A stretch of 64,000 nucleotides of DNA from an uncultured Candidatus Saccharibacteria bacterium (lineage in GTDB: Bacteria > Patescibacteriota > Minisyncoccia > UBA6257 > 1-14-0-10-40-38). Positions 4,127 to 64,000 of the stretch are shown here, piece by piece (the stretch's first letter is position 1; every line of letters begins with the position of its first letter). The DNA is taken from positions 104,577-168,576 of the forward strand of contig CAZIWN010000001.1 of assembly GCA_964543265.1 (NCBI GenBank). The letters are read 5' to 3'. The translations under genes and the position numbers were made by a program. The notes beneath the pieces are model-generated. The model ran no database searches. It was not told where the DNA came from and was given only the letters and a program-made list of their open reading frames with translations.

Positions 4127-4200
4127 TTTTAAATTGCGCTAAGACCAATCCACTTGGTCTTTCGCAATTTATAAATAAAAGCTATATAATTAATACAAAA

Positions 4201-5178
4201 ATGATTAATCAAGGTTCTGGATACTTTGAGAATAAGCCCCTTGCCGGATCAAGCCCGCAAGATATGAAAGAAAATAAAACCAAAGTTCTTCTTTATGGAA
4301 TATTTAACACTATTTCATCTTTAGCTTTAGGTTATTTCTTTTATGCTTTCTTAGATTCATTTTCTGTTTGGAATTTTATAGCACTTTGTTTATTCTTTGT
4401 GGTTTCTTTAGCTCTTTCTGTTTTTAATGCTATAGCCATCAAAGATCACTTAGAAAGGTTTATTCTAGTTCTTTTAGAGGTGCTTGCTATAATATTTTTC
4501 CCAGCAAAACTTGGCGGATTTTGGACAATATTCGCTGGTATAAGTTATTTAATATTTTCAATCTCTGCTCAAAGTATTGCTAGATCATATAGCGACAACG
4601 TTATTAAATTTAAATTTTACAATGTTGCCTATCATTTTTCTAAAAGCAAATCTACAGCTTTTGCGATTTTTATTTCTCTAGTTTTATTTGGCTACGGTTT
4701 TTATAACGGAGACAAGCTCGGTCAAGGTTTAGTTGATTCAACTATTAATTCTTCCAGATTTTTACTAGAGAGATATGTTCCTGGAATAAATTCATCATCT
4801 TCAGTTGATGATATCTTACTTGGTGTGGTTGAGAAGAAGGCCCCTGTTGGAACTAGTGTTTATGCCATCCAATCATCGGTTTCCGCTTTTAAAAAGAGCT
4901 TAGGGGAAACAATCGGATTAAATCTCACCGGCAAAGAAACAATTTTAGAATTGGTAAAAGACGGTACTTATGAAAAGACAAAAAATCTCCCATCTTTATA
5001 TAAAAATATTGGTTGGGTAATTTTAGGGCTCCTTGTTTTCTGGTCAATTAAAAGCCTCACTCATCTTTTCTCTTGGGCGATCTCAATAGTTGCATATATT
5101 TTTTACAAAATAATGTTATCCTCTGGATTTGTCCGCGTGAACGAAGAAATGATCACGAAAGAATCTATCATCATCTAG
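4201..5178 (+). CDS. Hypothetical polytopic membrane protein encoded between dnaK and dnaJ.
   Basis: Several hydrophobic helices and AT-rich native codon usage. No recognisable motif. Confidence 0.5.
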
Positions 5179-5215
5179 ACATCTCTCTTTATCCTTAATT
5201 CTTTATATCATTCCA

Positions 5216-6310
5216 ATGGCAGACGATTACTATAAAATTTTAGGCGTTGAAAAAAACGCTTCCGAAGAAGATATTAAGCGCGCTTATAGAAAAATGGCCC
5301 ACAAACATCACCCAGATAAATCTGGTGGCGATGAGGCCGCTTTTAAAAAGGTAAACGAGGCTTATCAAATTCTTTCTAATAAGGAAAAGCGTGCTCAATA
5401 CGATAAGTATGGTCGCGTTTTTGAGGGCGGCCAAGGGGGTGGTTTCAACGGCTTTCATGGTGGCAATCCTTTCGGCCAAGGAGGTTTTAATTTTGATTTC
5501 GGAAATATGGAAGATTTGGGCGATATGTTCGGCTCAATTTTCGAGGGTTTTGGAATGGGTGGCAAGCGCAAACAATATGAGCGCGGCGCCGATCTGGAAA
5601 TTCATCAAGAAATAGCTTTAAAAGAAGCCTATACGGGTATTGTTAAGAAACTTAAATTCAGCACAAAAATCAGTTGCGATAAATGTTCCGGAGTCGGACA
5701 CTTCCCAGAAAGCGGTTTCACTAAATGCGCCACCTGCGACGGCAAAGGAGAAATTAAAGAAACCAAGAGAACTTTCTTCGGTAATTTTGCCGAAGTTAGA
5801 AAATGCTCTAAATGTCGTGGGTTAGGCAAAATTCCTCATCGTCTCTGTTCTTCTTGTGAGGGTTTAGGTAGGCGAGTTGGAGAAAAAAATGTTGAGGTTA
5901 ATATTGGAGCCGGAATTGAGGATGGGCAGATTATAAAAGTAAATGGAGCCGGAGAATCTGGCGAGGCGGGAACTGACCCAGGGGACTTATATGTCAGAAT
6001 TAAGGTTTTAAAAGATAAAAAGTGGGAAAGACGAGGAGATGATCTTTTAGCTAGGCACGAAACAAGTTTAATAGATTTACTTATAACCAGATCTTTTGAG
6101 GTAGAAAATATTATAGGAGAAAAAATAAAATTAGAGCTTCCTGGAGGATTTAAGCTTGGAGATGAATTAGTTGTCTCTGGTGGTGGAATGCCCCGTCTAG
6201 GAGGATTTAGCAGGGGAAAGATGATTATTAAGCTAGAAGCTCAAATTCCAAAGAAATTAAATTCAAAAGCTAAAGAATTACTCGAACAACTTAAAAGAGA
6301 AGTAGATTAA
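5216..6310 (+). CDS. dnaJ: Chaperone DnaJ.
   Basis: J-domain with HPD (YYKILGV...HPDK), a G/F-rich linker and four CxxCxGxG zinc-finger repeats. Confidence 0.95.
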
Positions 6311-6483: not shown

Positions 6484-6522
6484 TTTTAACCCCCTTAATC
6501 TAATGAACTAATTTTATTATAT

Positions 6523-6585
6523 AAATTAAAACCACCCACAGCAACCGTAGTCGCTGGGGTGGTTCTGCGTCAGATTGTCTGACGC
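6523..6585 (-). terminator. Two tandem hairpins downstream of the islet lipoprotein gene: GCGTCAGA/TCTGACGC, then CCACCC...GGGTGG followed by a T-tract on the minus strand.
   Basis: Perfect 8-bp and 6-bp stems. The minus-strand sequence continues as TTTTAATTT. Confidence 0.6.
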
Positions 6586-6878
6586 TAGTTCGTCGCGGAG
6601 ATGGTCTCCGCGAGGCGCTCGAGGCCATCGTTCAGCTTCTCGAGGCCGTCGATGATCTTCTCCATCTCGATCGTCTGCTCGCGCATCCGCTCGAGATCGG
6701 TGTCGTCGCTCTTGACGACGTTCGGCAGCATGCGGTCGCGCATCTCGTCGTAGGCCTCCACCTTCTTCGTCGGCACCTCCTCCTTGGCGGGGGAGACGCA
6801 GCCGACGGACAGGAGGCAGAAGAAGGCGGCGATCCAGAACCCGTAGTTGAACGCGAGCATGTTTCGAAGCAAACGCAT
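6585..6878 (-). CDS. Small secreted or lipoprotein-like protein of 97 aa, GC-rich codons.
   Basis: Signal peptide with a lipobox-like LLSVGC. SD site CAAGGGAAAGGGAAAG is upstream of the ATG, and a consensus promoter lies upstream on the minus strand. Confidence 0.55.
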   Translation of the reverse strand: MRLLRNMLAFNYGFWIAAFFCLLSVGCVSPAKEEVPTKKVEAYDEMRDRMLPNVVKSDDTDLERMREQTIEMEKIIDGLEKLNDGLERLAETISATN

Positions 6879-6987
6879 TTTCTTCTTTCCCTTTCCCTTG
6901 GAAAGCTATTCTCTCGCAAGAAGGCGCTCGCCCTCATCGCAAAAGAATGCTTATTTGTTAATGTTCAATCTAACCCTAACCTTTGTA

Positions 6988-7017: not shown

Positions 7018-7020
7018 TAG

Positions 7021-7074
7021 ATAAGAAAGCCAATAAAATAATAGCCCCGGGTGCGCATTTGCGCATTCCGGGGC
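7021..7074 (-). terminator. Terminator of the 123-aa islet gene: GCCCCGG...CCGGGGC stem with an inner GTGCGCA/TGCGCAT palindrome, followed by a T-rich tract on the minus strand.
   Basis: Read from the sequence. Confidence 0.6.
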
Positions 7075-7080
7075 AGTAGT

Positions 7081-7452
7081 TCAGCTCGAAGCGGTAGCGG
7101 TGGCGGGGAACATCTCGCGAAGTTCCGCGCGAATCTCCTGGGCGAACCTGGTCATCGCCAAGCGCCATTCATCTTCATCGGTATGGATCCTGAGCTTTTT
7201 GGGCCAATACTTCGGGTCGCGCTTGGCCTTGGCCATGTCTGCAAGGTAGACCATCGCATCGAATCCTGTCTTGGCGTTGTTGTCTCCCGGCTTCAGTTCG
7301 AAGTCGAACGACATCTCGCCAATCCCATCGAAATCGGGCGCGGTCACGAAAGCAACGAGCTCTTCGTAGCTTCCAAGACCAAGCCATCCTTCCGGCGCCT
7401 GCTTCTTGCCGGGAAGAAAATGAAGGTCGTCAAGAAAAACATTCCTTTCCAT
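7081..7452 (-). CDS. Hypothetical 123-aa protein, GC-rich codons, unknown function.
   Basis: Clean ORF with SD site AAGGGA upstream of the ATG. Its own promoter (TTGACA-17-TAAACT at 7503-7531, minus strand) and its own terminator flank it. Composition is unlike that of the flanking genes. Confidence 0.5.
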   Translation of the reverse strand: MERNVFLDDLHFLPGKKQAPEGWLGLGSYEELVAFVTAPDFDGIGEMSFDFELKPGDNNAKTGFDAMVYLADMAKAKRDPKYWPKKLRIHTDEDEWRLAMTRFAQEIRAELREMFPATATASS

Positions 7453-7922: not shown

Positions 7923-8558
7923 TTAAATCTTCAAGCAATCTTTTTCGGTATATTCTCCAACCCTAGTTCTAATTAAGGAATATAAATATCCTCCAGTTTT
8001 AAGTTCTGTTCCAAGATTTCTAGCAATAGAGCGTATGTAAACCCCTGGGCCGGTAGTGATCTGTAGTTTTAAAATAGGGAATTGATAAGCTAAGATTTTT
8101 ATATCTTTAACTAATACCTTTCTAGATTTTAATTCAGGGGTTTTTCCTTCGCGAGCATATTCATACAATTTTTTACCCCCAATCTTAATCGCGCTATAAA
8201 GTGGCGGAGTTTGATCAATTTCTCCAATAAATTTTTTTATAGCAAAATCAATTTCTCCACGAGTTGGTTCTTTTTCAAATTTTATTTCCGTTTTCATCCC
8301 TTGTGCGTCATCAGTCTCACTTTCTTCTCCAAGCTTAATTTCAGCAATATATTCTTTTTCCTTTTGAACTTCTGTTGAGAGTTTTTTAGTAAATTCTTTT
8401 CCCACAGCAATCACTAAAACACCCTCAGCGAGAGGGTCTAGCGTGCCAGCGTGTCCCACAATCTTTTCTCTGGCAATTCTGCGGACTTTAGCTACTATAT
8501 CGTGCGAAGTTGGTCCTTTCGGTTTCCAAACGCCCACAATTCCTTGTTTAATTAACAT
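7923..8558 (-). CDS. truB: tRNA pseudouridine(55) synthase TruB.
   Basis: Motif GHAGTLDPLAEGVLVIAVGK. Confidence 0.9.
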   Translation of the reverse strand: MLIKQGIVGVWKPKGPTSHDIVAKVRRIAREKIVGHAGTLDPLAEGVLVIAVGKEFTKKLSTEVQKEKEYIAEIKLGEESETDDAQGMKTEIKFEKEPTRGEIDFAIKKFIGEIDQTPPLYSAIKIGGKKLYEYAREGKTPELKSRKVLVKDIKILAYQFPILKLQITTGPGVYIRSIARNLGTELKTGGYLYSLIRTRVGEYTEKDCLKI

Positions 8559-8911: not shown

Positions 8912-9421
8912 ATGCCGGCAACCGCAACAATGATCGAAGTCTTCCAGATTCTCGGATTGGAGATGATAAAGCGTCCAGTTTTTTCGGATCTGCTTCCAAA
9001 AACTGGATGCGTGCCAGATAAGAGAATCACGGAACAAGTAATGGGCGAGCCGTATTCTCTATCAGCTACAAGAGATGACCATTGGCGATCCGGAACAAGA
9101 GAAATCGCTCTAGTTGAACATCCGCCAGTTTGGTCAATGTCTACTGTCTGCGCGAATTCAGCCAAGCTCGGTCTGGGTCTATTGGATCCATACGATGTTC
9201 TATATTTCGCCATCAAGCATCCAGGGGTCCAAAGGTCTGGCCCAATCGCCTTCGTTCATCAGCCGCTTTTTCTAGGCGAGAACCGGAGAGGCCTTTTTGC
9301 TCTCGTTCTCGGTTTTGATGGGCAAGACAGAACCATTAATCTTGTCAGCTGGTTCGATACTTGTGATGCCGTTCCCGGAGTTCGCTACGCCCTTTTGAAG
9401 AGGCCAGAGAAGAAGAAGTAG
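8912..9421 (+). CDS. Hypothetical 169-aa protein, intermediate to high GC, unknown function.
   Basis: Strong SD site AAGGGGGAG lies 7 nt upstream of the ATG, and a terminator follows the ORF. Its composition is foreign to the host. Confidence 0.55.
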   Translation: MPATATMIEVFQILGLEMIKRPVFSDLLPKTGCVPDKRITEQVMGEPYSLSATRDDHWRSGTREIALVEHPPVWSMSTVCANSAKLGLGLLDPYDVLYFAIKHPGVQRSGPIAFVHQPLFLGENRRGLFALVLGFDGQDRTINLVSWFDTCDAVPGVRYALLKRPEKKK

Positions 9422-9433
9422 TTCAAGGTCTCA

Positions 9434-9474
9434 AAATCCCGCGCATGAGGTAAGTCCAAAGCGCGGGTTTTTTA
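9434..9474. terminator. Bidirectional terminator CCCGCGC...GCGCGGG flanked by A- and T-tracts.
   Basis: Sits between convergent genes. Confidence 0.75.
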
Positions 9475-14115: not shown

Positions 14116-14216
14116 TGTTGGATAAATCATTAAGCTAACCTTCTCCTGAGTTGGAGAAAAGGGTCTGCTGGTCACCCTAAAAGACTAGCAACGGTTCTTT
14201 GACAAGGGAGAGAGTC

Positions 14217-14417
14217 ATGAACAGTCACATGCACCCGCACGATCACGATCACGGCGTTCGCGCTTCCGACGATCGGCATCACGGTGTTCACGGCGACCAC
14301 AGTGATCACAGCGACAGTGGCCACAGGCACCACAGGGGTGCGCACGGTCACGATCACAAGGCGCACGGTCACCACCACGGGTCGGTCCACAAGCAGAAGA
14401 GGGGCGGCGCGCACTGA
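14217..14417 (+). CDS. Histidine-rich 66-aa peptide (about 38% His) with GC-rich codons; likely metal binding.
   Basis: SD site AAGGGAG lies 6 nt upstream of the ATG at 14217. The run is MNSHMHPHDHDHG...HGHDHKAHGHHHGSVH. A terminator follows. Confidence 0.55.
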   Translation: MNSHMHPHDHDHGVRASDDRHHGVHGDHSDHSDSGHRHHRGAHGHDHKAHGHHHGSVHKQKRGGAH

Positions 14418-14493
14418 TTTCGTATTCCGCGATTTGTCAGAGATGTCATCATGAAGTCTTTTCCAAGTCCGAAGTCCGGTATTCAATACGAAA

Positions 14494-14775: not shown

Positions 14776-14781
14776 TGCGGC

Positions 14782-14851
14782 TGCGGGACCTGGGCTCGAA
14801 CCAGGATACCAGCTTTCAGAGAGCTGTGTCCTACCATTAGACGATCCCGCA
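14782..14851 (-). tRNA. tRNA-Gln (anticodon CUG) with a U1:A72 pair; CCA is not encoded.
   Basis: Cloverleaf folded by hand: acceptor TGCGGGA/TCCCGCA, U8, anticodon stem CAGCT/AGCTG with loop CTCTGAA, and T-arm CTGG TTCGAGC CCAG. Confidence 0.8.
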
Positions 14852-14923: not shown

Positions 14924-16255
14924 ATGTCATTTTTTTCTAGAAAAAAAACTCAAAAAGTAGAAGAAGAGAGGGTTTTAACTCAAGAAGAGAACGTTAAAAA
15001 ATTCCTTAGTGAAAGCCAGGGCCAAGAAAAAGATAAAAAACCAGAAGACGTTAAAACTCAAGCAGAAAATCAGAGCCAAGTTTCTATTATTAGAATAGTT
15101 GATCACTTAGTTTTAAACGCTTACGAAGCCGGAGCCTCTGATATTCATATCGACCCAGAAGAACACCAAATTAGAGTGCGCTTTAGGATAGACGGTATTT
15201 TACACGACCAATACACGTTTCCCAAAGACGTTCTTTCCGAAATTATAACCAGAATAAAAATTCTTTCAGGGCTAAGAACAGACGAACACCAAAAACCTCA
15301 AGACGGAAGATTTAAAGTTCCAATCAATGAAAAGAAAAACGAATTTATAGACGTCCGTGTATCCATTGCCCCAACTTATTATGGGGAAAATTGTGTTATG
15401 AGGCTTCTTGCAGAAACTGGTCAAATATTCTTTTTGGAAAATTTAGGTTTCTCTCCAGAAAATATTGAAAAAGTTTATCGCGCTATTAAAAAACCATACG
15501 GAATGATTCTAGCCACCGGTCCAACTGGATCCGGAAAAAGCTCAACTCTTTATGCAATTTTAAAGAAACTAAATACTAAAGATGTTTCAATTATTACCGT
15601 TGAAGACCCTATTGAATATTCAATCCAAGGAATAGACCAAATTCAGGTAAATAACACCACGGGATTAACATTTGCCCAAGGATTGCGTTTCATCTTGAGG
15701 CAAGATCCAAATATAATAATGGTAGGAGAAATCCGCGACGCCGAAACTGCTGGAATTGCTATTAACGCTTCTATGACTGGTCACTTATTGCTTTCAACCC
15801 TCCACACAAACGATGCCATCACAACTCTTCCAAGGTTGCTTGATATGGGCATTGAGCCATTTTTGATTGCTTCAACAATGAGTATCGCCATAGGTCAAAG
15901 ACTTGTGAGAACAATCTGTAAAGAGTGCAAAGTGGCAAAAACTTTAACCGAAAAAGAAATTTCTGCTGTCGGTGATGAAAATATTGCTAAATTTTTAAGA
16001 AAAAATAGTGATTTATATGTCGGTGTTGGATGTAAAAAATGCGATATGAGCGGATTTAAAGGTAGAGTTGGCATTCAGGAGGTTTTAGAGGTTAACGAAG
16101 AGATTAAAGATTTAATAATGAAACGCGCCAGCGCGAGCGAAGTTAAGGCAGCCGCTATTAGACACGGTATGAAAACCATGCTTGAAGATGGGTTGGAAAA
16201 AGTTAAAAACGGATTGACCACCATAGAAGAGGTCTTAAGAGTGTTTAGTGAATAA
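14924..16255 (+). CDS. pilB: Type IV pilus/type II secretion assembly ATPase (PilB/GspE family).
   Basis: Walker A GPTGSGKSS, Asp/His boxes and a tetracysteine motif. Confidence 0.9.
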   Translation: MSFFSRKKTQKVEEERVLTQEENVKKFLSESQGQEKDKKPEDVKTQAENQSQVSIIRIVDHLVLNAYEAGASDIHIDPEEHQIRVRFRIDGILHDQYTFPKDVLSEIITRIKILSGLRTDEHQKPQDGRFKVPINEKKNEFIDVRVSIAPTYYGENCVMRLLAETGQIFFLENLGFSPENIEKVYRAIKKPYGMILATGPTGSGKSSTLYAILKKLNTKDVSIITVEDPIEYSIQGIDQIQVNNTTGLTFAQGLRFILRQDPNIIMVGEIRDAETAGIAINASMTGHLLLSTLHTNDAITTLPRLLDMGIEPFLIASTMSIAIGQRLVRTICKECKVAKTLTEKEISAVGDENIAKFLRKNSDLYVGVGCKKCDMSGFKGRVGIQEVLEVNEEIKDLIMKRASASEVKAAAIRHGMKTMLEDGLEKVKNGLTTIEEVLRVFSE

Positions 16256-25407: not shown

Positions 25408-25414
25408 ATTTTAA

Positions 25415-25456
25415 GTGCCACCTCCAGCGCTTGCGCTAAATAGGTGGCACTTTTTC
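25415..25456. terminator. Terminator GTGCCACCT...AGGTGGCAC followed by TTTTT; also T-rich on the minus strand.
   Basis: 9-bp perfect stem. Confidence 0.8.
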
Positions 25457-25466
25457 TTCCCCGTCT

Positions 25467-25688
25467 TCAGTTCAGGACGGTGACGAATCTCCCGATTGGT
25501 GTGAAGACTTGTTCACCGTCGACGATCTCGAGTTGTCCGAGAACTTCGCCACATCCCGGTACGGGGCAAGAAACGTTTGAGTGTTTGCAGGACGGGGCAG
25601 CGACCTTGCACTGGCCATACCTTCCTTCCCACTTGCAAACGCACCTGATCTGCGTCTCCGCACCGCACTCCTTCTGACTCATCGTCAT
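25467..25688 (-). CDS. Cys-rich 73-aa protein with 8 Cys (CGAETQIRCVCKWEGRYGQCKVAAPSCKHSNVSCPVPGCG) and GC-rich codons.
   Basis: SD site AGGAGG lies 9 nt upstream of the ATG at 25688. It is wedged between a terminator and the rnpB promoter. Confidence 0.5.
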   Translation of the reverse strand: MTMSQKECGAETQIRCVCKWEGRYGQCKVAAPSCKHSNVSCPVPGCGEVLGQLEIVDGEQVFTPIGRFVTVLN

Positions 25689-25761
25689 TTCTTTCCGCCT
25701 CCTGAAGCTGGATTCGAAACTAGACATAATAATAACAATAATTAAGCCAAAAAGGCAAGAT

Positions 25762-25796: not shown

Positions 25797-26141
25797 GTCG
25801 CTTAGGTGATTACACGGCATCGCAAAAAAATGCCGTGAGGAAAGTCTGGACTCCTGTCTTGCGAGAAATCGCAAGTAAACGTACCGGTTAAAAGCCGGCT
25901 GGGTAATCCAAGAGGTGCGAAAAGTGACGCTCAAAGACGAAAGAATTTGAGAATCCGCTTGCGGATTAACCTTCTCTATAGTGAAGGAGAGGGGTGCAAC
26001 GGCTAAATCCTTACGAGGTGCAAGATCGTGCTCTAAATTAAAACTTAGAGAGAATCGCTTGAGCCTTAAAGTAATTTAGGGCCTAGATAAATTATCACCG
26101 CTTCGCCGAAAGGCGGAAACAGAATCCGGCTTATTAGCGAC
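25797..26141 (+). ncRNA. rnpB: RNase P RNA (bacterial type A).
   Basis: Conserved GAGGAAAGUCUGGACUCC (P4 5' strand), ACAGAAUCCGGCUUA (P4 3' strand) and a P1 pairing GTCGCT/AGCGAC, followed by a terminator. Confidence 0.85.
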
Positions 26142-26155
26142 AAAAAATATCAGAA

Positions 26156-26180
26156 GTCCGCGCCTAAAGCGCGGATTTTT
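26156..26180 (+). terminator. rnpB terminator TCCGCGC ctaaa GCGCGGA followed by TTTTT.
   Basis: Read from the sequence. Confidence 0.8.
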
Positions 26181-26196
26181 GATATATGGTTTAATA

Positions 26197-26225
26197 TTGC
26201 TTTTATGACAACAATCTGTTATTAT
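26197..26225 (+). promoter_or_regulatory. Candidate promoter TTGCTT-17-TATTAT for the small membrane ORF.
   Basis: Read from the sequence. Confidence 0.4.
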
Positions 26226-26269
26226 GATTAACAGTTCTTCGGTTAAGGTCATTGGGAGGGAAGGCCTTG

Positions 26270-26458
26270 GTGGAATTCGGAAAGAGGCTTTGCTTCGCTC
26301 TGGTCTGGACTGTTTCCTGGGTTCTTCCGAAGGAATCTAGGGACGAGGAAGAAGAGGTGAGTGGTGTCTTGAAGCTTCTCCTCTTCGCCCTTGTCGGAGT
26401 TGGAACGGCCTTGGTTCTTCACTTCTATCGGATGAGGCAAAACTTCATCCAGATTTGA
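26270..26458 (+). CDS. Small two-TM membrane protein of 62 aa from the GTG start (68 aa if the TTG at 26252 is used), GC-rich.
   Basis: SD site GGGAGGGAAGG lies 5 nt upstream of the GTG. Two hydrophobic helices are separated by an acidic EEEE loop. A terminator follows. Confidence 0.45.
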   Translation: MEFGKRLCFALVWTVSWVLPKESRDEEEEVSGVLKLLLFALVGVGTALVLHFYRMRQNFIQI

Positions 26459-26477
26459 AAGAAGGCCAAGTGTCTCA

Positions 26478-26558
26478 AATGGCGTGCTGCCACCAAGTAG
26501 CGCGCCATTTTTTTTGTAAAAAAAGACCACCCATTACTCGCTCGCGAGCTAGGGTGGT
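26478..26558. terminator. Pair of convergent terminators sharing a central T8/A7 tract: ATGGCG...CGCCAT followed by T8 on the plus strand, and ACCACCC...GGGTGGT followed by a T-tract on the minus strand.
   Basis: Read from the sequence. Confidence 0.65.
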
Positions 26559-26570
26559 TTTCTGTCGCTG

Positions 26571-26789
26571 TTAACGAGGAGTAGTCGCTTCCCCGAACAG
26601 CATCGGTACTTCTATCAGATGCTTTTTATTGCATCCCTTCTTGCATTTCGGATGCGTCGAGCTCCCAAAATATGTATTGCCCTTTGGGATCTTACCACCG
26701 CACCCAGTGCAGGTACGATCCAAATGGGCAACATGATGTTCTGGAACCTCATCATCCTCTTCGTCGCTTCCGCCGTTGCCTCCACGCAT
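26571..26789 (-). CDS. Small zinc-ribbon protein of 72 aa from the ATG (CTGCGGKIPKGNTYFGSSTHPKCKKGC), acidic N-terminus.
   Basis: SD site GGGGAGGG lies upstream of the ATG. Its own promoter TTGAAA-17-TATAGT (26845-26873, minus strand) and its own terminator flank it. Confidence 0.5.
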   Translation of the reverse strand: MRGGNGGSDEEDDEVPEHHVAHLDRTCTGCGGKIPKGNTYFGSSTHPKCKKGCNKKHLIEVPMLFGEATTPR

Positions 26790-26876
26790 TGGGTTCGCCC
26801 TCCCCGTGAATGGATTGATGGTCAAGAAACGTGTACTGATATTTACTATAAAACATTCTTAAATAATTTTCAAAAT

Positions 26877-26920
26877 GAAAAGGCCCGGCTAGAACTATAC
26901 GTTCTATAACCGGACCTTTT
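26877..26920. terminator. Bidirectional terminator with a long imperfect stem GGCCCGGCTAGAAC tatac GTTCTATAACCGGACC, flanked by A4 and T4.
   Basis: Read from the sequence. Confidence 0.65.
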
Positions 26921-26946
26921 GCTCCGTCTTGCGGAGCCGTCGCCTT

Positions 26947-27153
26947 TCAGGCGGTGGCAACTGCGAGTTGCCGGCTCTCGGCGCGGAGCTCTGCGAGTTC
27001 TCCGCTCGAGAACAGATTGAGCAGTTCAGGCCACGTCGGCATCCTGCCGAGCTTCCGAGCCTTCCGCGCGATGATCTGCCGCATCGTGGGCACCGCGACC
27101 TCTTCTGAGCACTGATCGCAACCATTCGCGCAGCACTTGGATTCGCACGCCAT
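26947..27153 (-). CDS. Cys-rich 68-aa protein (N-terminal CESKCCANGCDQC, basic/helical C-terminus).
   Basis: A GGGGGG tract lies 7 nt upstream of the ATG. Copy B of the consensus promoter sits about 90 nt upstream. Confidence 0.5.
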   Translation of the reverse strand: MACESKCCANGCDQCSEEVAVPTMRQIIARKARKLGRMPTWPELLNLFSSGELAELRAESRQLAVATA

Positions 27154-27246
27154 CGTAGTTCCCCCCGAATGCCATTCTGATTTCGCCCTAAGGCTCGTCA
27201 GAGGACTTGTGAATGACTAGGGCCAATCCCTTATCATCACTCCTAT

Positions 27247-34532: not shown

Positions 34533-34590
34533 TAAATTCCACGCGCTTTAAGAGGAAGCGCGCAGAAATCACTTGTCGAAGGGAGATTGA

Positions 34591-34821
34591 ATGGGTGCGA
34601 AGAGGGGATCTACGGTGAGGCAGGGATCTGTTGGCGGCGCCTCTTCTTCTACTGTCTTGAACCGACTGGCTCAACCCGACTGGAAGTTCAAGGGGGTTGA
34701 ACCGATTCGCGGGGCGATGAAGGGGTGCAGGTCTTGCACCTTCGATGGCGTGCCTCACGGTCAGTTCAGGGTGGGTGGTCCGAGGGGCGTCGTCTCCAGG
34801 TGTCCTTGCACGAACAGGTGA
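34591..34821 (+). CDS. Small 76-aa ORF (CRSC...CPC) in a GC-rich islet; coding status uncertain.
   Basis: SD site GAAGGGAG lies 6 nt upstream of the ATG. The Gly/Arg/Ser/Val-rich composition is typical of a random GC-rich translation. A 5' UTR hairpin CGCGCTT/AAGCGCG precedes it and a strong terminator follows. Confidence 0.35.
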   Translation: MGAKRGSTVRQGSVGGASSSTVLNRLAQPDWKFKGVEPIRGAMKGCRSCTFDGVPHGQFRVGGPRGVVSRCPCTNR

Positions 34822-34825
34822 TTTT

Positions 34826-34866
34826 TCAGCCCGGCTTTCCGAAAAGGAAGCCGGGCTGTATAATTT
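34826..34866 (+). terminator. Terminator CAGCCCGGCTTTCC gaaaa GGAAGCCGGGCTG followed by TATAATTTAT.
   Basis: 13-bp near-perfect stem. Confidence 0.8.
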
Positions 34867-34872
34867 ATATAA

Positions 34873-38399: not shown

Positions 38400-38445
38400 A
38401 AATTAAACCGCCAGGACCCTTGTTGGGCGCTGGCGGCGTTTAGTT
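38400..38445. terminator. Bidirectional terminator CCGCCAG...CTGGCGG.
   Basis: A-tract upstream; T-tract on the minus strand. Confidence 0.65.
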
Positions 38446-38451
38446 CAATAC

Positions 38452-38802
38452 TTAGCCCGTAGGCTCAGTATACGTAGCATCAAGAATAAAACTCTTCTTT
38501 TGATCAAAGGTTCCACTGAATTTATCATCTCCGCGCTTAACAGCAATTCTAACAGGAACCCACACGTGTCCGAATGTTGCATCTGCCTTGCGATACATCG
38601 TACAGGTTACCGAAACCGGAAGCAGGCCCTGAGCTGGTCCACGATTTTTAAGACTTAAGGTAAATGTTCTGATGTCCAGAAACCGCGTAGCTTCGATATC
38701 CATAGCATTCCACACGGAGTCATTATCTCCGTCAACCGTGCTAATTGCGATTTGCGTCATCCTGATTGCCAAAAGCACGCCAGCAGCCAAGCTCATTTTC
38801 AT
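38452..38802 (-). CDS. Secreted 116-aa protein (signal peptide MKMSLAAGVLLAIRMTQIAIS), GC-rich codons.
   Basis: SD site GGAG lies 6 nt upstream of the ATG at 38802. Copy C of the consensus promoter lies upstream. Confidence 0.5.
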   Translation of the reverse strand: MKMSLAAGVLLAIRMTQIAISTVDGDNDSVWNAMDIEATRFLDIRTFTLSLKNRGPAQGLLPVSVTCTMYRKADATFGHVWVPVRIAVKRGDDKFSGTFDQKKSFILDATYTEPTG

Positions 38803-38940
38803 CGGACATCTCCTTGTCAAAAGGGGATTCACTCCAGGGGTCAACCCAGAAAGTGGCAGCCATCACGGCAGCACCTTAGAAGCAAGAATAAGTCTTCTTT
38901 CCAAAGTGCCACCGTGACAACCTCTCAATATGCTTATAAA

Positions 38941-41353: not shown

Positions 41354-41382
41354 TTGACATTTAGATTCCTTATTGTTAAAAT
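41354..41382 (+). promoter_or_regulatory. Consensus promoter TTGACA-17-TAAAAT.
   Basis: Read from the sequence. Confidence 0.65.
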
Positions 41383-41389
41383 TGTAGGA

Positions 41390-41707
41390 CAAGCGAGTTT
41401 AGAGGTCGCAAGTCAGCCTTCTGACGCCAAAGTTCTCAAGCTCCTTCTTCGCACTTCGCAAGCGTCTTTAGGTCTAAAAAATGGACTCTCGACCTTCATC
41501 GGGAGTTGACCTTCCGTTTTCACTGGTCACAAATCCAGTGACCGCTGGCTAACCGATTACGACCAGGTTATCCGACACGGTGAGTAATCTCTGGGACAAT
41601 TAGATGTAACTAACCAGGGAGCGGTAAGAAATTGCGCCTCAAAAACTCGCGCGGTGCCCCAAGCTTCGAGCAGGGTGAAAGACAACCCTGCTCGAAGCTA
41701 CTTTTTT
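41390..41707 (+). ncRNA. Candidate ncRNA of about 320 nt (GC about 50%), bounded by the consensus promoter and a 15-bp perfect hairpin terminator AGCTTCGAGCAGGGT...ACCCTGCTCGAAGCT followed by T6.
   Basis: No ORF longer than 28 aa on either strand and no SD site. Identity unknown; I found no match to tmRNA, SRP RNA or RNase P RNA motifs. Confidence 0.45.
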
Positions 41708-41723
41708 AAAATAAATATAAAAC

Positions 41724-45379: not shown

Positions 45380-45638
45380 CCTTATAAGCGTCGGTAGGGC
45401 TGACTTTGTCTTAGCTCTGATAAGTGGGACACTTTGTGCCCACAACGAAATTCGGCGAATAGAGAGGCGTGGTCGCAAGATCACAATAGCTCCTCTCGTC
45501 AGAGTACGAGCAAATCAGCCCTACCGACACCATTTCAAAAACAAGGCACACGGTGCTGCTGGTACCCCCCCGTACCAGACACCGCTGAGTCACTGGTCCG
45601 ACGCTACCCGCAAGGGCGCGCTCGGACCTATTTTTTTA
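45380..45638 (+). ncRNA. Candidate structured ncRNA of about 260 nt. A 14-bp long-range helix (45390-45403 pairing with 45515-45528) encloses 111 nt. Then a GGTAC-C6-GTACC hairpin and a terminator GTCCGA...TCGGAC followed by T7.
   Basis: No credible ORF. Helices read directly from the sequence. Possible promoter TTGTAT-18-TACTAT (45344-45373). Confidence 0.4.
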
Positions 45639-45649
45639 CAATCTTAATT

Positions 45650-45676
45650 AAAACCCCGCCAATCGGCGGGGTTTTC
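45650..45676. terminator. Bidirectional terminator AAAACCCCGCC aatc GGCGGGGTTTT; it also terminates typA.
   Basis: Read from the sequence. Confidence 0.8.
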
Positions 45677-47479
45677 TTATTCAGTTCTCTTTCTTAGCGC
45701 ATTCTTTAAAATTCTTTTTCTTAATCTTATAGATGTTGGAGTGGCTTCTACCAATTCATCATCTCCAATATACTCCAAGGCCTCTTCAAGGGTTAATTTT
45801 TTAGCTGGCACCAAATCATCAGTTACAGCATCTGTTTTTGCTCTAAAGTTAGTCAACTGTTTAGCTTTACAAACATTTACCACCAAATCTTCTGATTTTG
45901 CATTTTGTCCTACAACTTGTCCTTCATAAACATCTTCTGCTGGAGCCACAAACATAACTCCTCTTTCTTGAGAGCTTAATAGAGCATAGGCGGTAGATTT
46001 TCCGGCCTCATGTGCAACCAAGGATCCATGTGGGCTAGTTTCTAATCCCTGTATTTTTGGGAAATATCCAGCGCTTAAACTATTTATAATTCCCATACCT
46101 TTAGTTTCTATAAGTAATTGATTTCTAAATCCAATAAGGCCCCTGGTAGGAATAAAGAAGTGAAACGCCACAGTTCCATTATCAACTGCCATATTTTTCA
46201 TTTCTCCCTTACGTTCACTTATCTTTTGAATAACCATTCCCGAATATTTTTCTGGTGCTTCAATCCAAACATCTTCGAATGGCTCCATGGTTACTCCGTT
46301 TTCTTCATTGAAAATAACTTCTGGTCTCGAAACTTGAAGTTCGTATCCTTCGCGTCTCATTTTTTCAATTAAAATTGAAAGGTGAAGTTCTCCTCTTCCG
46401 CTTACAATAAATTCGTCTGCAGATTTACCCTGCACAACCTGTAGCGCAACATCGCTATCTAATTCTTTCTCTAATCTTTCTTTTAGGTTTCTTGAAGTGC
46501 AATATTCTCCCTCTCTGCCAGCAAAAGGGGACGTATTTACTCCAAAAATCATTTTAACCGTAGGTTTTTCTATAACGATTGGCTTCATTCCTTTTGGATT
46601 TTCAGCTTCAGAAATAGTGTCTCCAATCATAATATTATCCACTCCAGCCACAGCTCCGATATCTCCAGCCACAAGCTCTGGAACTTCAACTTTTCCAAGT
46701 CCCGAAAAGACCATTAAGTTTGTAAGCTTAACTTTAGAAATTTCTCCATTTCTATGAACTACAGAAATCATCTGCCCAGATTTCATCTTTCCAGCAGTCA
46801 CTCTTCCAATTCCAATTTTTCCCTTAAAGTTGTCATAAGCTAAGGAAACAACCATCATTTGTAGTGTTTCATTTATTTCTGCTTTAGGTGTTGGGATGTG
46901 TTTAATAATCTCTTCAATTAATGGTTTAACTCCAGTCATATTCTCAAGTTCTGGGGCCATTCCAGTCTTTCCCAATCTTCCAGAAGCATAAACGATAGGG
47001 AAATTAAGCTGATCGTTATTTGCTCCTAATTCTATAAATAATTCTATAGTTTTTTCTAAAACATAATTAATTCTTGCATTGGGTTTATCAATTTTATTTA
47101 TAACTACAATAATCTTATGTCCCATCGCCAATGCTTTCTTTAAAACGAATCTTGTTTGAGGCATTGGGCCTTCTTGAGCATCGATAAGTAAAAGCGAACC
47201 ATCAGCCATATTTAAAACGCGCTCAACTTCTCCTCCGAAGTCTGCGTGTCCAGGGGTGTCTATGATATTAATTTTATATTCACCATAACGAACAGAAGCA
47301 TTTTTAGAGAATATAGTAATTCCTCTTTCTCTTTCAATTTCGTTAAAGTCCATTATCATCGATCCACCCTCTCCAAGCCTTCCAAGATCAGTTTCGGATT
47401 GTCTCAAAAGCGCATCAACTAAAGTTGATTTTCCGTGGTCGACGTGAGCAATAATTGCGATATTTCTTAAGTTATTCAT
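45677..47479 (-). CDS. typA: Translational GTPase BipA/TypA.
   Basis: G1 motif AIIAHVDHGKSTLVD and an EF-G-like domain organisation. Confidence 0.95.
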   Translation of the reverse strand: MNNLRNIAIIAHVDHGKSTLVDALLRQSETDLGRLGEGGSMIMDFNEIERERGITIFSKNASVRYGEYKINIIDTPGHADFGGEVERVLNMADGSLLLIDAQEGPMPQTRFVLKKALAMGHKIIVVINKIDKPNARINYVLEKTIELFIELGANNDQLNFPIVYASGRLGKTGMAPELENMTGVKPLIEEIIKHIPTPKAEINETLQMMVVSLAYDNFKGKIGIGRVTAGKMKSGQMISVVHRNGEISKVKLTNLMVFSGLGKVEVPELVAGDIGAVAGVDNIMIGDTISEAENPKGMKPIVIEKPTVKMIFGVNTSPFAGREGEYCTSRNLKERLEKELDSDVALQVVQGKSADEFIVSGRGELHLSILIEKMRREGYELQVSRPEVIFNEENGVTMEPFEDVWIEAPEKYSGMVIQKISERKGEMKNMAVDNGTVAFHFFIPTRGLIGFRNQLLIETKGMGIINSLSAGYFPKIQGLETSPHGSLVAHEAGKSTAYALLSSQERGVMFVAPAEDVYEGQVVGQNAKSEDLVVNVCKAKQLTNFRAKTDAVTDDLVPAKKLTLEEALEYIGDDELVEATPTSIRLRKRILKNALRKRTE

Positions 47480-47526
47480 ATTGGGTTGAGCGTTTATTCT
47501 ACTATATTTTGATTTAAAGAGTCAAT

Positions 47527-47554
47527 TTGACTAAAGATAATATTTGTCTATAAT
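47527..47554 (+). promoter_or_regulatory. Consensus promoter TTGACT-16-TATAAT.
   Basis: Read from the sequence. Confidence 0.6.
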
Positions 47555-47599
47555 AATAAAACCCTTAATTTTGAGGGGGTAAAAGGGAGGGATTGATAG

Positions 47600-47791
47600 A
47601 TGAGCTCTTCTGGTTCTGCGACGGCTGCACCAATCATCAGGGGACGTTGCTTAGAGCTTCGCTCCAACGCCCTTTCTCGTCGGGCTAGAAACGTGAATCA
47701 TCGCGCATTGAGCGATCACGCTCGCACCTGCGCCAGCTGCAGGGACCACCTTGCATCGCTCGCCGCCAAGCAATCGAGCTCGGCGTCTTGA
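47600..47791 (+). CDS. Small 63-aa ORF with an HxxxCxxC (ZAS-like) motif (HARTCASC); coding status uncertain.
   Basis: SD site AAGGGAGGG lies 9 nt upstream of the ATG. The Arg/Ser/Ala-rich composition could be a random GC-rich translation. A terminator follows. Confidence 0.35.
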   Translation: MSSSGSATAAPIIRGRCLELRSNALSRRARNVNHRALSDHARTCASCRDHLASLAAKQSSSAS

Positions 47792-47796
47792 GCCAA

Positions 47797-47838
47797 ATAC
47801 TCCGATAGGCCACGGGTCTGTCGGAGTATTTTATTTTC
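47797..47838 (+). terminator. Terminator ATACTCCGA...TCGGAGTAT followed by TTTATTTT.
   Basis: Read from the sequence. Confidence 0.75.
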
Positions 47839-48940
47839 CTAAGCTTTCAATAATCGCAATCTCAAGCGGTATAAAAGAAAAAGGAGAATACCTCATTTCA
47901 GAATAAGCTCTAATTAACGATTTTAATAGATTAATTAAAAACTTTTCATCAGCGCTAATGGAAAGATTTTTTAATTTATTCAGTTCGGTAGTCGTAAATT
48001 CTTCCACAAATATTTTTTCAAAATCAGGATTTGCTTTCAGGGCTAAAATTTTTCTCAAAAAATGTATCAATTCTTTAGCTGAATCAACAATACTTATTCC
48101 GTTGTTATAAATCGCATTTACCGCCTCGATAGATTCTTTAGTTTTTTTATTTAATATCAACTCTGCTAAATTAGAAATCTTTTTAAATCCGGCTTTTCCT
48201 AAAATAGATTCAACCTTGTCGGCGGTAATTTTTTCTTCCAAACTTCCCATTTGGTCAAGTATAGATTCGGCGTCTCTAAATCCTCCTTCTGCGGTTTCTG
48301 CAATGAGTTCTAATGCCTCATCTTCTATGTCGATTTTTTCAGTTTTAGAGATGTCTTTTAATTTTTTAAATAATTTCTGAATAGGAATTTTCCTAAAATT
48401 AAATTTTTGGACACGCGACAAGATCGTTCCAGGAACTTTTTCATATTCCGTCGTAGCTAAAATAAATACAGCGTGAGCTGGTGGCTCTTCTAATGTCTTT
48501 AATAGCGCATTAAAAGCTTCTTTAGTTAACTGATGAACTTCGTCTATAATAAAAACCTTATATTTTGAAGATGTGGGGGATAGTTTAATAGATTCTTTTA
48601 AATCTCTAATTTCATCTATGCCCCTATTTGAAGCCGCATCCATTTCCACGACATCTAATGATTTTCCAGAATCGACATCTATACATTTAAGGCATTCATT
48701 GCAAGGCTCTCCTTTGGCGGCAAATTTTTTATCACTTTGGCGCGTTTCGCAATTTAATATTTTAGCCAAAATTCTAGCAACCGTCGTTTTTCCTGTTCCT
48801 CGACTGCCATAAAAAAGATAGGCATGCGAAATTCTGTCTTGAATTGCCGCGTTTTTTAATGTTTCAGTAATATGGTCTTCACCTAAAACATCTTCTAATT
48901 TTTTAGGTCTATATTTTCTATATAAAGCTCCTCCTTTCAC
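47831..48940 (-). CDS. dnaX: DNA polymerase III gamma/tau subunit (short form).
   Basis: Motifs GSRGTGKTT and a zinc module C..C..C. Confidence 0.9.
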   Translation of the reverse strand: MKGGALYRKYRPKKLEDVLGEDHITETLKNAAIQDRISHAYLFYGSRGTGKTTVARILAKILNCETRQSDKKFAAKGEPCNECLKCIDVDSGKSLDVVEMDAASNRGIDEIRDLKESIKLSPTSSKYKVFIIDEVHQLTKEAFNALLKTLEEPPAHAVFILATTEYEKVPGTILSRVQKFNFRKIPIQKLFKKLKDISKTEKIDIEDEALELIAETAEGGFRDAESILDQMGSLEEKITADKVESILGKAGFKKISNLAELILNKKTKESIEAVNAIYNNGISIVDSAKELIHFLRKILALKANPDFEKIFVEEFTTTELNKLKNLSISADEKFLINLLKSLIRAYSEMRYSPFSFIPLEIAIIESLGK

Positions 48941-62521: not shown

Positions 62522-63220
62522 TCAGTGATTCCAGTTTGTAGCGACTTCGCTACCAAACTGGTTTGCCAGACAATTCCTGAAGCGTTCGTCTTCCTCCTTT
62601 TCCCTCTTCAGGATGTCTCCAATTCCCTGCTGGTTCTCTTCGAGCTTCTCGAAGCTCATTCCGCAGAAGGCGCTTCTCGCCAATTCTTCGCAGTTGCGAA
62701 GCTTGGCAAAGCCGACGACGAGATCATTCAGCTGGGACGGCGACAAATCGTGGGGGTTGATCTCAGGCAAGGTCTCGAATAGATTCATCGCCATCTTTTG
62801 GAGATGATCGAGATCCATCTTGCCTTCTGGGTCCTGCAAGTAATTCCAGGATTGATGATCAACCAAGCTCTTCTTATGGAGCTTGGTAAGTTCGTGCTTG
62901 AGAAAATCGTTTTCCTTCTTCAGGGCTTCGATTTCCTCGTGAGCGCTTGTGAGCTCTTGGGTGAGCTCGAGGATGTTGCTCTGGCTCTCGCCAGTTTCGA
63001 TCTGAGGCTCGATTGCGCTCCTCTCGGCAACGATCTCCGTTTCCGGAGCCGTCGGCGCAAGTGTCACAGCCTGGTAGGCTTCGATCTTGGTAGGGTCATC
63101 TCCAACGAAGTTTTGTTGAGGGTGACAACCATAATCGACGCCGTGATTGTTGTTTCCTGAAATTGCGAACATGGCAACGCAGAAAACAACAAGCGCAATC
63201 AATCCGACAATTCGCTTCAT
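62522..63220 (-). CDS. Secreted coiled-coil protein of 232 aa with GC-rich codons.
   Basis: Signal or TM anchor MKRIVGLIALVVFCVAMFAISG, heptad-rich middle and SD site AAAGGAG upstream. Second gene of a two-gene minus-strand operon. Confidence 0.55.
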   Translation of the reverse strand: MKRIVGLIALVVFCVAMFAISGNNNHGVDYGCHPQQNFVGDDPTKIEAYQAVTLAPTAPETEIVAERSAIEPQIETGESQSNILELTQELTSAHEEIEALKKENDFLKHELTKLHKKSLVDHQSWNYLQDPEGKMDLDHLQKMAMNLFETLPEINPHDLSPSQLNDLVVGFAKLRNCEELARSAFCGMSFEKLEENQQGIGDILKREKEEDERFRNCLANQFGSEVATNWNH

Positions 63221-63249
63221 AGCTGACAGCTCCTTTGTCTTTCGAGTGA

Positions 63250-63295
63250 TCCCGGAAGGATCTCTTTCACTACTTAAGCCGAGATCCTTCCGGGA
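63250..63295 (-). promoter_or_regulatory. Perfect 15-bp intercistronic hairpin TCCCGGAAGGATCTC...GAGATCCTTCCGGGA with no U-tract.
   Basis: Sits between two co-oriented genes; possible processing, stability or attenuation element. Confidence 0.45.
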
Positions 63296-63311
63296 ATCTT
63301 CTCGGCTGCCG

Positions 63312-63851
63312 TCAGTTGTGGATCTTGTTGTTCGAGCCCTGGTAGTTTTCGACGTTGGCGTCGCTCCTGCCGTTCAAGTCAACGTCGTTGCCGTTGTTCC
63401 CGCCATCGGGACCAGTGAGCAACCCACCACCTTCGAAGTCGTGATCGTTGTTGTCGCAGTTCTTCTCGTTGACGCCGCCACCGTTCTTGATGTCGATGTC
63501 ATTCCCGTCGCAATCGTCCAGCTTGATCTTGCCGCCATCGGCATCGATCTCGTCGCCGTTCAGGCCTTCACCGCGGGCCAGTACGCCCTTCTTGATGGTG
63601 ATCTTGGCCTTCACGTAGTCGCCGTGATTCCAGATCTCTTCGACGACGACGTTGTCCGCGCTGTCTGGGCTGTTGGTGACCTTTCCTTCTCCGTCCGGAG
63701 CGGTCCAGGTCTGGCCAGGTCCCAGGCGAGTCGTGTGCGTTCCCGATGACGATCCGCTCGTCGCCGCGTTGGCGACCGACGTCCCTCCTCCGATCGCGAA
63801 GATCGCGACCAGAGCGAGTGCGAGCAAGGCGAAAATCTTCCTCGGATTCAT
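63312..63851 (-). CDS. Secreted Asp/Gly/Asn-rich protein with DxDxDG-like repeats; putative Ca2+-binding protein.
   Basis: Signal peptide MNPRKIFALLALALVAIFAIGGGTSVANA. Loops DADGGKIKLDD, DGNDIDIKNGG and DNNDHDFEGGG. SD site AGGAG upstream. Confidence 0.55.
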   Translation of the reverse strand: MNPRKIFALLALALVAIFAIGGGTSVANAATSGSSSGTHTTRLGPGQTWTAPDGEGKVTNSPDSADNVVVEEIWNHGDYVKAKITIKKGVLARGEGLNGDEIDADGGKIKLDDCDGNDIDIKNGGGVNEKNCDNNDHDFEGGGLLTGPDGGNNGNDVDLNGRSDANVENYQGSNNKIHN

Positions 63852-64000
63852 GCGTTCACTCCTGTGTTTTGGCCCGTTTTCGGTTCTTAAGCGAAATCGG
63901 GCTTAAGCCTACCTCCCCTTCTTTCGTCGCTGTTTTGTCAAGGTGCTACGAATCTAGGGCTACACACCCCAGTTTCATACTTAACATTACTCCTTTAACA

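Follow-up and report, generated by a model that had tools for sequence, protein, structure and literature searches.

A small monocistronic gene between typA and dnaX

The window analysed here is a 64-kb stretch of contig CAZIWN010000001.1 from a public metagenome-assembled genome. Its TypA assigns it to Candidatus Paceibacterota, within the Candidate Phyla Radiation (CPR, Patescibacteria), and is 100% identical to a cluster member (P0124) encoded on a 307-kb NCBI contig. Between two of its minus-strand genes, typA/bipA (45677-47479) and dnaX (47831-48940), lies a GC-rich islet that holds a small plus-strand gene, referred to below as the small gene, whose product is a 63-residue protein with an HxxxCxxC motif. 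The features of the locus are listed here in the order of the window (UTR, untranslated region).

47496-47525, minus strand: divergent typA promoter, TTGACT-18-TAGAAT
47527-47554, plus strand: sigma-70-type promoter of the small gene, with TTGACT at 47527-47532, a 16-nt spacer and TATAAT at 47549-47554; 11/12 consensus match
47529-47826, no strand assigned: GC-rich islet, 53% GC over this extent, inside the 35% GC window
47562-47577, plus strand: small 5'-UTR hairpin CCCTTAATTTTGAGGG, which the other alleles lack
47583-47591, plus strand: Shine-Dalgarno (SD) site AAGGGAGGG, with its GGAGG core at 47586-47590, 9 nt before the ATG
47600-47791, plus strand: small protein gene of 63 codons plus stop; 63-residue product MSSSGSATAAPIIRGRCLELRSNALSRRARNVNHRALSDHARTCASCRDHLASLAAKQSSSAS
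47648-47650, 47717-47719, 47729-47731 and 47738-47740, plus strand: putative metal-ligand codons for Cys17, His40, Cys44 and Cys47, respectively
47795-47840, plus strand: intrinsic terminator, a 17-bp stem (47795-47811 / 47815-47831) followed by the T-run TTTTATTTT

The region 47527-47840 is a complete monocistronic gene with its own promoter, SD site, open reading frame (ORF) and intrinsic terminator, oriented divergently from typA. A previous sequence-only reading of this DNA had described the TTGACT-16-TATAAT promoter, the SD site, the 63-residue ORF with its HxxxCxxC motif and the hairpin terminator, and each of these elements was found where it had been placed. Missed at that stage was the upstream Cys17, which completes a four-ligand pattern, C-x22-H-x3-C-x2-C. 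The promoter ranks best among six promoter-like sites within 800 nt (1.7 expected) and has a predicted transcription start at about 47561. Its -35 box stands back-to-back with that of typA, with 1 nt between them, forming the palindrome AGTCAATTTGACT, an arrangement that suggests possible coupling to typA expression. At the other end of the gene, the T-run of the terminator overlaps the final dnaX codons on the opposite strand.

Distribution among relatives

Relatives of the window were recovered by synteny-anchored searches through TypA. A Lake Baikal metagenome-assembled genome (L009), with a TypA 93% identical to that of the window, carries a 63-codon ORF at the same place and in the same orientation as the small gene. 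Two ENA assemblies (L031/L032), from the same 90% TypA cluster as the window, carry at this place a 59-codon ORF, also divergent from typA, which gene callers left uncalled. In three further members of that cluster (L033 and L029/L030) the dnaX-typA spacer measures only about 100 nt and holds no islet; the islet is likewise absent from more distant Paceibacterota with TypA 68-84% identical. The small gene is thus accessory, being present in three of six close relatives. It is one of a set of GC-rich accessory islets that one Paceibacterota sub-lineage possesses (the window, L009 and L031/L032) and that the close relatives L033 and L029/L030 lack.

The flanks of the islet align among the window, L009 and L031 at 83-86% DNA identity, whereas the islet DNA does not. 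The alleles are mosaic. L009 and L031 share promoter and 5'-UTR at 86% identity, yet their coding sequences are 61% identical; the window and L031 share a terminator (82% identical and covered by a blastn match), yet their coding sequences are 48% identical. The L009 allele has an unrelated terminator, beyond which lie 2.4 kb of additional DNA. Promoter boxes TTGACT and TATTAT precede both the L009 and the L031 alleles, as do SD sites at the equivalent position (AGGAGGG in L009, AAGGAGGG in L031), and the AGTCAA box and typA leader are conserved in both, so that all three alleles are accompanied by an SD site, TTGACT/TAT(A/T)AT boxes and a terminator.

The small protein is an orphan restricted to this lineage and unannotated. 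Exact look-ups in protein collections did not find it, and a word-indexed profile search over 5.8 billion clusters returned no homologue. An exhaustive phmmer search of 1.84 billion representatives gave a single match (P0001), a 1360-residue protein with a low-complexity, 13-fold tandem repeat but no CxxC or upstream Cys, which we judged spurious; no real homologue was found. No relatives were detected in viral contigs or, by tblastn, in phage genomes, nothing credible in Pfam or NCBIfam and no match in PADLOC. The best PHROGs matches (E 0.04-0.06) pointed to a different family of unknown function for each allele.

The reading frame is under selection as a protein

Comparison of the three alleles shows a pattern of change typical of coding sequence. 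In a 36-codon core aligned between the window and L009, 18 residues are identical, 13 of them through different codons, and identity at codon positions 1, 2 and 3 amounts to 0.64, 0.64 and 0.25, the last being at the level of chance (0.26). By the Nei-Gojobori method, the proportion of nonsynonymous differences (pN) lies below that of synonymous differences (pS) in every pair: 0.27 versus 0.78 for L009-L031, 0.42 versus 0.72 for window-L031 and 0.51 versus 0.69 for window-L009. Islet-versus-islet tblastx identifies the small-gene frame alone as conserved (E 1.6e-5; next best 0.7).

Among the 52 ungapped columns, 18 (35%) are invariant. No Cys of any allele lies outside them, and neither does the one His that the alleles share. 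The motif reads DHARTCASC, DHARQCGRC and DHARQCARC across the three alleles, and the upstream Cys precedes the His by 23 residues in the window, 24 in L009 and 25 in L031. When the ORF was shuffled 200,000 times with its composition preserved, the full motif appeared 38 times, and six-frame translation of the window plus 28 loci revealed no further occurrence. The sequence-only reading had left the choice between a minimal zinc-binding peptide and a chance motif in GC-rich sequence. The second option is rejected by the shuffles and by conservation of the motif in two syntenic homologues, while the first gains support from the invariant ligands and the codon-level selection on the protein, metal binding itself being the predicted part. 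Loss of the motif in homologues, named beforehand as grounds for abandoning the idea, was looked for, and all four putative ligands proved to be kept in the three alleles. From the codon-position pattern, pN below pS, the conserved frame and the invariant ligands, we conclude that the small ORF represents a real, presumably translated gene and that the four residues are its likely functional ligands.

The same comparisons bear on two rival readings. An ORF that arose by chance in foreign GC-rich DNA, and that is not translated or has no function, would be in keeping with a frame that is uncalled in L031/L032, absent from protein databases and missing in three close relatives; 63 codons without a stop are also not significant alone at 59% GC, where ORFs of 60 codons are not rare (about 12% chance per frame, an estimate from base composition). 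A chance frame would not be expected, however, to stay open over 59-63 codons in three alleles at 48-61% DNA identity with pN below pS, a conserved SD site and all Cys invariant, and this explanation, which appears largely refuted by the codon-position pattern, retains very little probability. We give equally little credence to the islet as a structured non-coding, or dual-function, RNA with no more than an incidental ORF. Where a genome is AT-rich, islands of high GC content are usually structural RNAs, and here an islet of 55-62% GC with its own promoter and terminator sits in a 35% GC genome, with GC content at third codon positions (GC3) staying near 0.6 although silent sites are saturated. 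Folding of the complete transcript gives z = -4.3 on the plus strand against -1.8 on the minus strand, but the terminator accounts for this value, and the ORF bodies by themselves fold like shuffles (z = -1.0, -1.8 and -0.6 for the three alleles). RNAalifold returned a penalising covariation term (+2) and showed most helices disrupted in one or more alleles, and Rfam has no match in the islet at gathering thresholds or at E ≤ 10. With Rfam, folding z-scores and RNAalifold all against it, the structured-RNA reading was rejected; divergence specific to third positions with retained amino acids is, moreover, the signature of a protein. A degenerate signal recognition particle (SRP) RNA, which lies next to dnaX in many bacteria, was considered separately in view of a hairpin element in the relative L027 (described below), and found no Rfam support on either strand.

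A putative zinc-clamped helical hairpin

We interpret the small gene as encoding an orphan protein of about 60 residues that would form a zinc-clamped helical hairpin and bind a polyanionic partner, a reading that we consider fairly probable. A single-sequence AF2 model places helices at residues 9-25, 27-30 and 33-61. In this model, His40, Cys44 and Cys47 (i, i+4, i+7) would project from one side of helix 2, and Cys17, Leu20 and Ala24 would share one face of helix 1. Cys17 together with His40, Cys44 and Cys47 could then form a tetrahedral CHCC site, most likely occupied by Zn(II), that clamps both helices, with the invariant Leu20, Ala24, Ala36, Leu37 and Ala41 packing around it. The invariant residues would thus line a helix-helix interface clamped by Zn(Cys)3(His). 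The remaining surface, rich in Arg and Lys, may bind RNA, DNA or an acidic protein surface. An isoelectric point (pI) of 10-11.5, few hydrophobic residues and a chain that ends 12-18 residues past CxxC make binding through a charged surface most likely, rather than the hydrophobic wrapping of an extracytoplasmic function (ECF) sigma factor seen in zinc anti-sigma (ZAS) factors. With three Cys among its ligands, the site could also render partner binding sensitive to thiol oxidation.

In size and charge the predicted protein recalls the zinc-binding ribosomal proteins bL36, bL32 and bL33 and small prokaryotic zinc-finger proteins, which are small basic nucleic-acid binders. Shared features, in a comparison of general properties and not of homology, are a length of about 40-65 residues, a very high pI and a single four-ligand Cys/His site that would serve as the chief structural element. 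The ligands of the small protein, spaced C-x22-25-H-x3-C-x2-C, would be placed on helices and not in CxxC...CxxC knuckles or ribbons; the small protein also has no Pfam or NCBIfam match, and its gene is accessory rather than core.

Several points weigh against the zinc-clamped hairpin. The AF2 model was predicted from a single sequence and has low confidence (mean pLDDT 65). The type of partner is guessed from charge, because the protein has no homologue of known function, and a Cys3His site can also hold an iron-sulfur (Fe-S) cluster. The comparison covers only three alleles, all of one narrow lineage. Silent-site divergence and base composition raise a further objection: the silent sites of the small gene are about twice as diverged as those of typA (pS 0.78 versus 0.40 for L009-L031), third-position identity between the window and L009 is 9/36 against 0.62 in typA (P = 7e-6), and GC3 is 0.59-0.64 against 0.22-0.26 in host genes. 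A plain model of a small regulator gene leaves both the silent-site divergence and the high GC3 unexplained.

Relationship to zinc anti-sigma factors and other metal sites

The sequence-only reading had seen in HxxxCxxC the signature of RsrA/ChrR-type ZAS factors. ZAS proteins of the CHCC/HHCC type are defined by this motif together with a fourth ligand, Cys or His, that precedes the motif His by 23-26 residues (PMC4960319). At the level of the motif the comparison holds, in that all alleles have HxxxCxxC and a fourth ligand 23-25 residues upstream. In CHCC-type members such as RsrA of Streptomyces coelicolor, RshA and Neisseria MseR/NMB2145, the same H-x3-C-x2-C and upstream Cys are found in proteins that are likewise soluble, helical and small, with a Cys-rich site that could be redox-sensitive in both. 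The small gene is in this sense a variant of the CHCC zinc-motif theme.

One could accordingly picture a minimal stand-alone ZAS-type anti-sigma factor, in which the CHCC site organises helices that bind and sequester a sigma factor from another locus until thiol oxidation sets it free, the target possibly being the primary sigma since CPR genomes have few alternatives. Besides the motif and ligand spacing, such a protein would account for the helical predicted secondary structure and for the hhalign comparison with five PDB-verified ZAS domains, which aligned the motif in register with a pairwise E of 0.003, though with a probability of 10% over 21 columns. We nevertheless consider this explanation unlikely, as the family-level evidence speaks against it. 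None of the alleles matched the Pfam family zf-HC2 (PF13490) at E ≤ 10; fragments of comparable length (59-64 residues) from RsrA, RsiW and RslA, verified against PDB entries 5FRF, 5WUQ and 3HUG, scored 31.6-41.6 bits (E 1e-7 to 1e-10; cutoff 22.2). A profile search over all PDB chains returned no anti-sigma factor, and Foldseek of the AF2 model against the PDB yielded generic helical hairpins only (E at least 2.5), with no match to an anti-sigma domain (ASD). Searching for an ECF sigma partner, as the sequence-only reading had proposed, we ran tblastn with RpoE, SigW, SigR and SigA probes, and neither the 64-kb window nor the CPR loci (410 kb) yielded a sigma-70-family gene; the same probes gave a match in L017, a Dehalococcoidia locus that served as positive control. 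In 1264 of 1265 cases, an ASD gene shares its transcript with a group IV sigma (PMC2893595), whereas the small gene is monocistronic, with its own sigma-70-type promoter and no adjacent ECF sigma gene. The proteins also differ in composition: the three alleles have a pI of 11.5, 10.2 and 10.8 against 4.4-6.3 for RsrA, RsiW, RslA and ChrR, and a hydrophobic fraction of 0.15-0.19, roughly half of the 0.26-0.30 in those proteins. RsrA contacts its sigma factor via hydrophobic residues of helices III and IV (PMC4960319), and with only 12-18 residues after CxxC the small proteins would lack helix IV entirely, as well as the portion of helix III that contacts sigma. Because the motif-level features of ZAS are present and the family-level ones fail, the small protein is not to be filed under this family; it resembles ZAS only in metal-site geometry and is probably not a ZAS anti-sigma factor.

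The same ligand conservation would be expected if the Cys3His pattern held a [2Fe-2S] or [4Fe-4S] cluster or a redox-active disulfide, making the protein a small redox or iron sensor or an electron carrier. Fe-S clusters with three-Cys-one-His ligation are known, for instance in mitoNEET-type proteins. The small protein shows no similarity, however, to any Fe-S family in Pfam or NCBIfam, and the i, i+4, i+7 helix spacing with a distal Cys corresponds to the ZAS-type zinc geometry. This assignment seems to us doubtful, and we retain the zinc-clamped hairpin as the preferred reading.

Base composition and evolution of the islets

The compositional anomaly extends to other islets of the window. 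Two islet genes, for which a second copy could be compared, are the following (GC3 given as window/L034).

6585-6878, minus strand: 97-residue product with a lipoprotein-like signal peptide; 66% amino acid identity to L034, GC3 0.95/0.92
7081-7449, minus strand: product with a cREC_REC (PF20274) domain, E 1.7e-9; 71% amino acid identity to L034, GC3 0.67/0.62

The two genes recur together on an AT-rich Logan contig (L034, from SRR26991424; 30-305 and 452-820), beside a core gene with GC3 of 0.24. A donor search for the most GC-skewed islet gene retrieved only this other AT-rich CPR contig with the same islet pair. Amelioration, in which a recent transfer from a high-GC donor gradually decays, is disfavoured because the L034 pair keeps its high GC3; the GC-richness is therefore maintained. 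The lipoprotein-like gene is unusual in that its pS (0.28) is close to its pN (0.22). For the small gene, three-taxon parsimony counted strong-to-weak (S>W) and weak-to-strong (W>S) changes at 29:28, by a method that is biased at saturation and visibly so in the typA control. Candidate causes of the maintenance are GC-biased gene conversion at recombination hot spots, selection for GC at silent sites and repeated exchange with a GC-rich pool.

The islets do not behave as a repeat or mobile-element family, a possibility we discarded as their DNA sequences do not resemble one another and neither direct nor inverted repeats flank them. They are closer to the lineage-specific orphan genes of variable islands, with which they have in common presence/absence polymorphism, a composition that diverges from the host and an insertion-prone position that receives other insertions in relatives (such as the extra 2.4 kb in L009). 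Here, in contrast, the units are tiny, single-gene segments of about 300 bp in ordinary spacers, free of integrase, repeats and att-like sites. They are also GC-richer than the host, whereas mobile DNA is usually AT-richer, and their high GC3 is held over long divergence.

A bolder proposal would combine these observations. The islets, that of the small gene among them, could be accessory cassettes of a kind not described before: GC-rich, carrying one gene each with its own promoter and terminator, and inserted into ordinary intergenic spacers of AT-rich Paceibacterota genomes. Their silent-site GC (GC3 0.6-0.95 versus 0.22-0.26 in core genes) would be actively upheld over long divergence, possible mechanisms being GC-biased gene conversion at recombination hot spots and selection at the mRNA level. 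Within this class, the small protein would operate on its own as a CHCC zinc/thiol switch, having either converged on ZAS or diverged from them to an extreme degree; its target would be RNA polymerase, the primary sigma factor or the ribosome, and its host would have no ECF sigma factors. Taken as a whole, this proposal is speculative and in our view improbable.

Annotation of CPR and other metagenome-assembled genomes systematically overlooks small proteins, and the small gene is an instance of this. It indicates that the ligand arrangement defining CHCC-type ZAS can occur in a very basic protein of about 60 residues with no ECF sigma in the available sequence, either through convergence on a simple helical zinc clamp or as a very diverged, repurposed ZAS remnant. 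It also calls for caution, as HxxxCxxC alone is insufficient for an anti-sigma annotation. A GC3 of 0.6-0.95 in accessory genes of a genome near 0.23, across saturated lineages, may bear on the evolution of base composition and on gene flow in ultra-small episymbiotic bacteria. This compositional puzzle may be a more interesting lead than the small gene itself, which on its own is of moderate interest.

Other islets and neighbouring features

About a dozen GC-rich islets of 0.3-0.7 kb (47-59% GC versus 35% overall) occupy part or all of the gaps between AT-rich genes of the window, and several contain plausible small ORFs with GC3 of 0.6-0.95. They are located as follows.

6521-6892, 7020-7439, 9106-9468, 14161-14481, 25412-25727, 26095-27241, 34536-34867, 38402-38917, 45397-45678 and 62576-63978: further GC-rich islets

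The segment 25242-27470 comprises more than 2.2 kb with three GC-rich blocks and no ORF of at least 100 residues. It contains small Cys-rich ORFs at 25467-25727 (minus strand, 86 residues) and 26947-27153 (minus strand, 68 residues), the latter with a weak HNH_repeat match.

The islet at 41384-41708, between an ORF of 129 residues and ychF, has no ORF above 51 residues. It has a TTGACA-type promoter near 41354 and a strong terminator at 41667-41702, and folds at z = -5.8 on the plus strand and -5.2 on the minus strand. It is 79% identical to 15586-15966 (minus strand) of L031 and absent in L033, where the spacer is 103 nt. We regard it as a candidate structured RNA of about 330 nt that belongs to no Rfam family, the sole permissive match being its terminator hairpin. 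At threshold, the RNA genes of the window consist of one tRNA-Gln (CTG; 14779-14851, minus strand), with no other Rfam family within the 64 kb.

The spacers that hold islets in the window act as hot spots of insertion in the relatives, at 3281-5958 and 7809-10109 of L009 and at 9809-11954 of L031. Between dnaX and the small gene, L009 carries an AT-rich ORF of 439 residues and a GC-rich orphan ORF of 241 residues (GC3 0.68), the latter with no match in Pfam, NCBIfam, PHROG or PADLOC. Downstream of typA, both L009 and L031 have a Pif1-family helicase gene where the window has the islet 45397-45678.

The dnaX-typA spacer of L027 (1249-1442; TypA 84% identical) contains, instead of the small gene, a long GC-rich hairpin (about 110 nt) that is preceded by a TTGACA...TATAAT promoter and shares the strand of dnaX and typA. 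Visually it resembles a small SRP (4.5S-like) RNA; it has no Rfam match at gathering thresholds. In other relatives a different element, absent from the window, immediately precedes typA. It is a conserved hairpin that carries a T-run and reads TGTA(C/T)GTCGCTCA...TGAGCGACATGATTTTT in the typA orientation.

L031, about 7930-7965: conserved hairpin upstream of typA
L033, about 7990-8030: conserved hairpin upstream of typA
L029, about 970-1010: conserved hairpin upstream of typA

This hairpin is probably either the dnaX terminator or a typA leader element.

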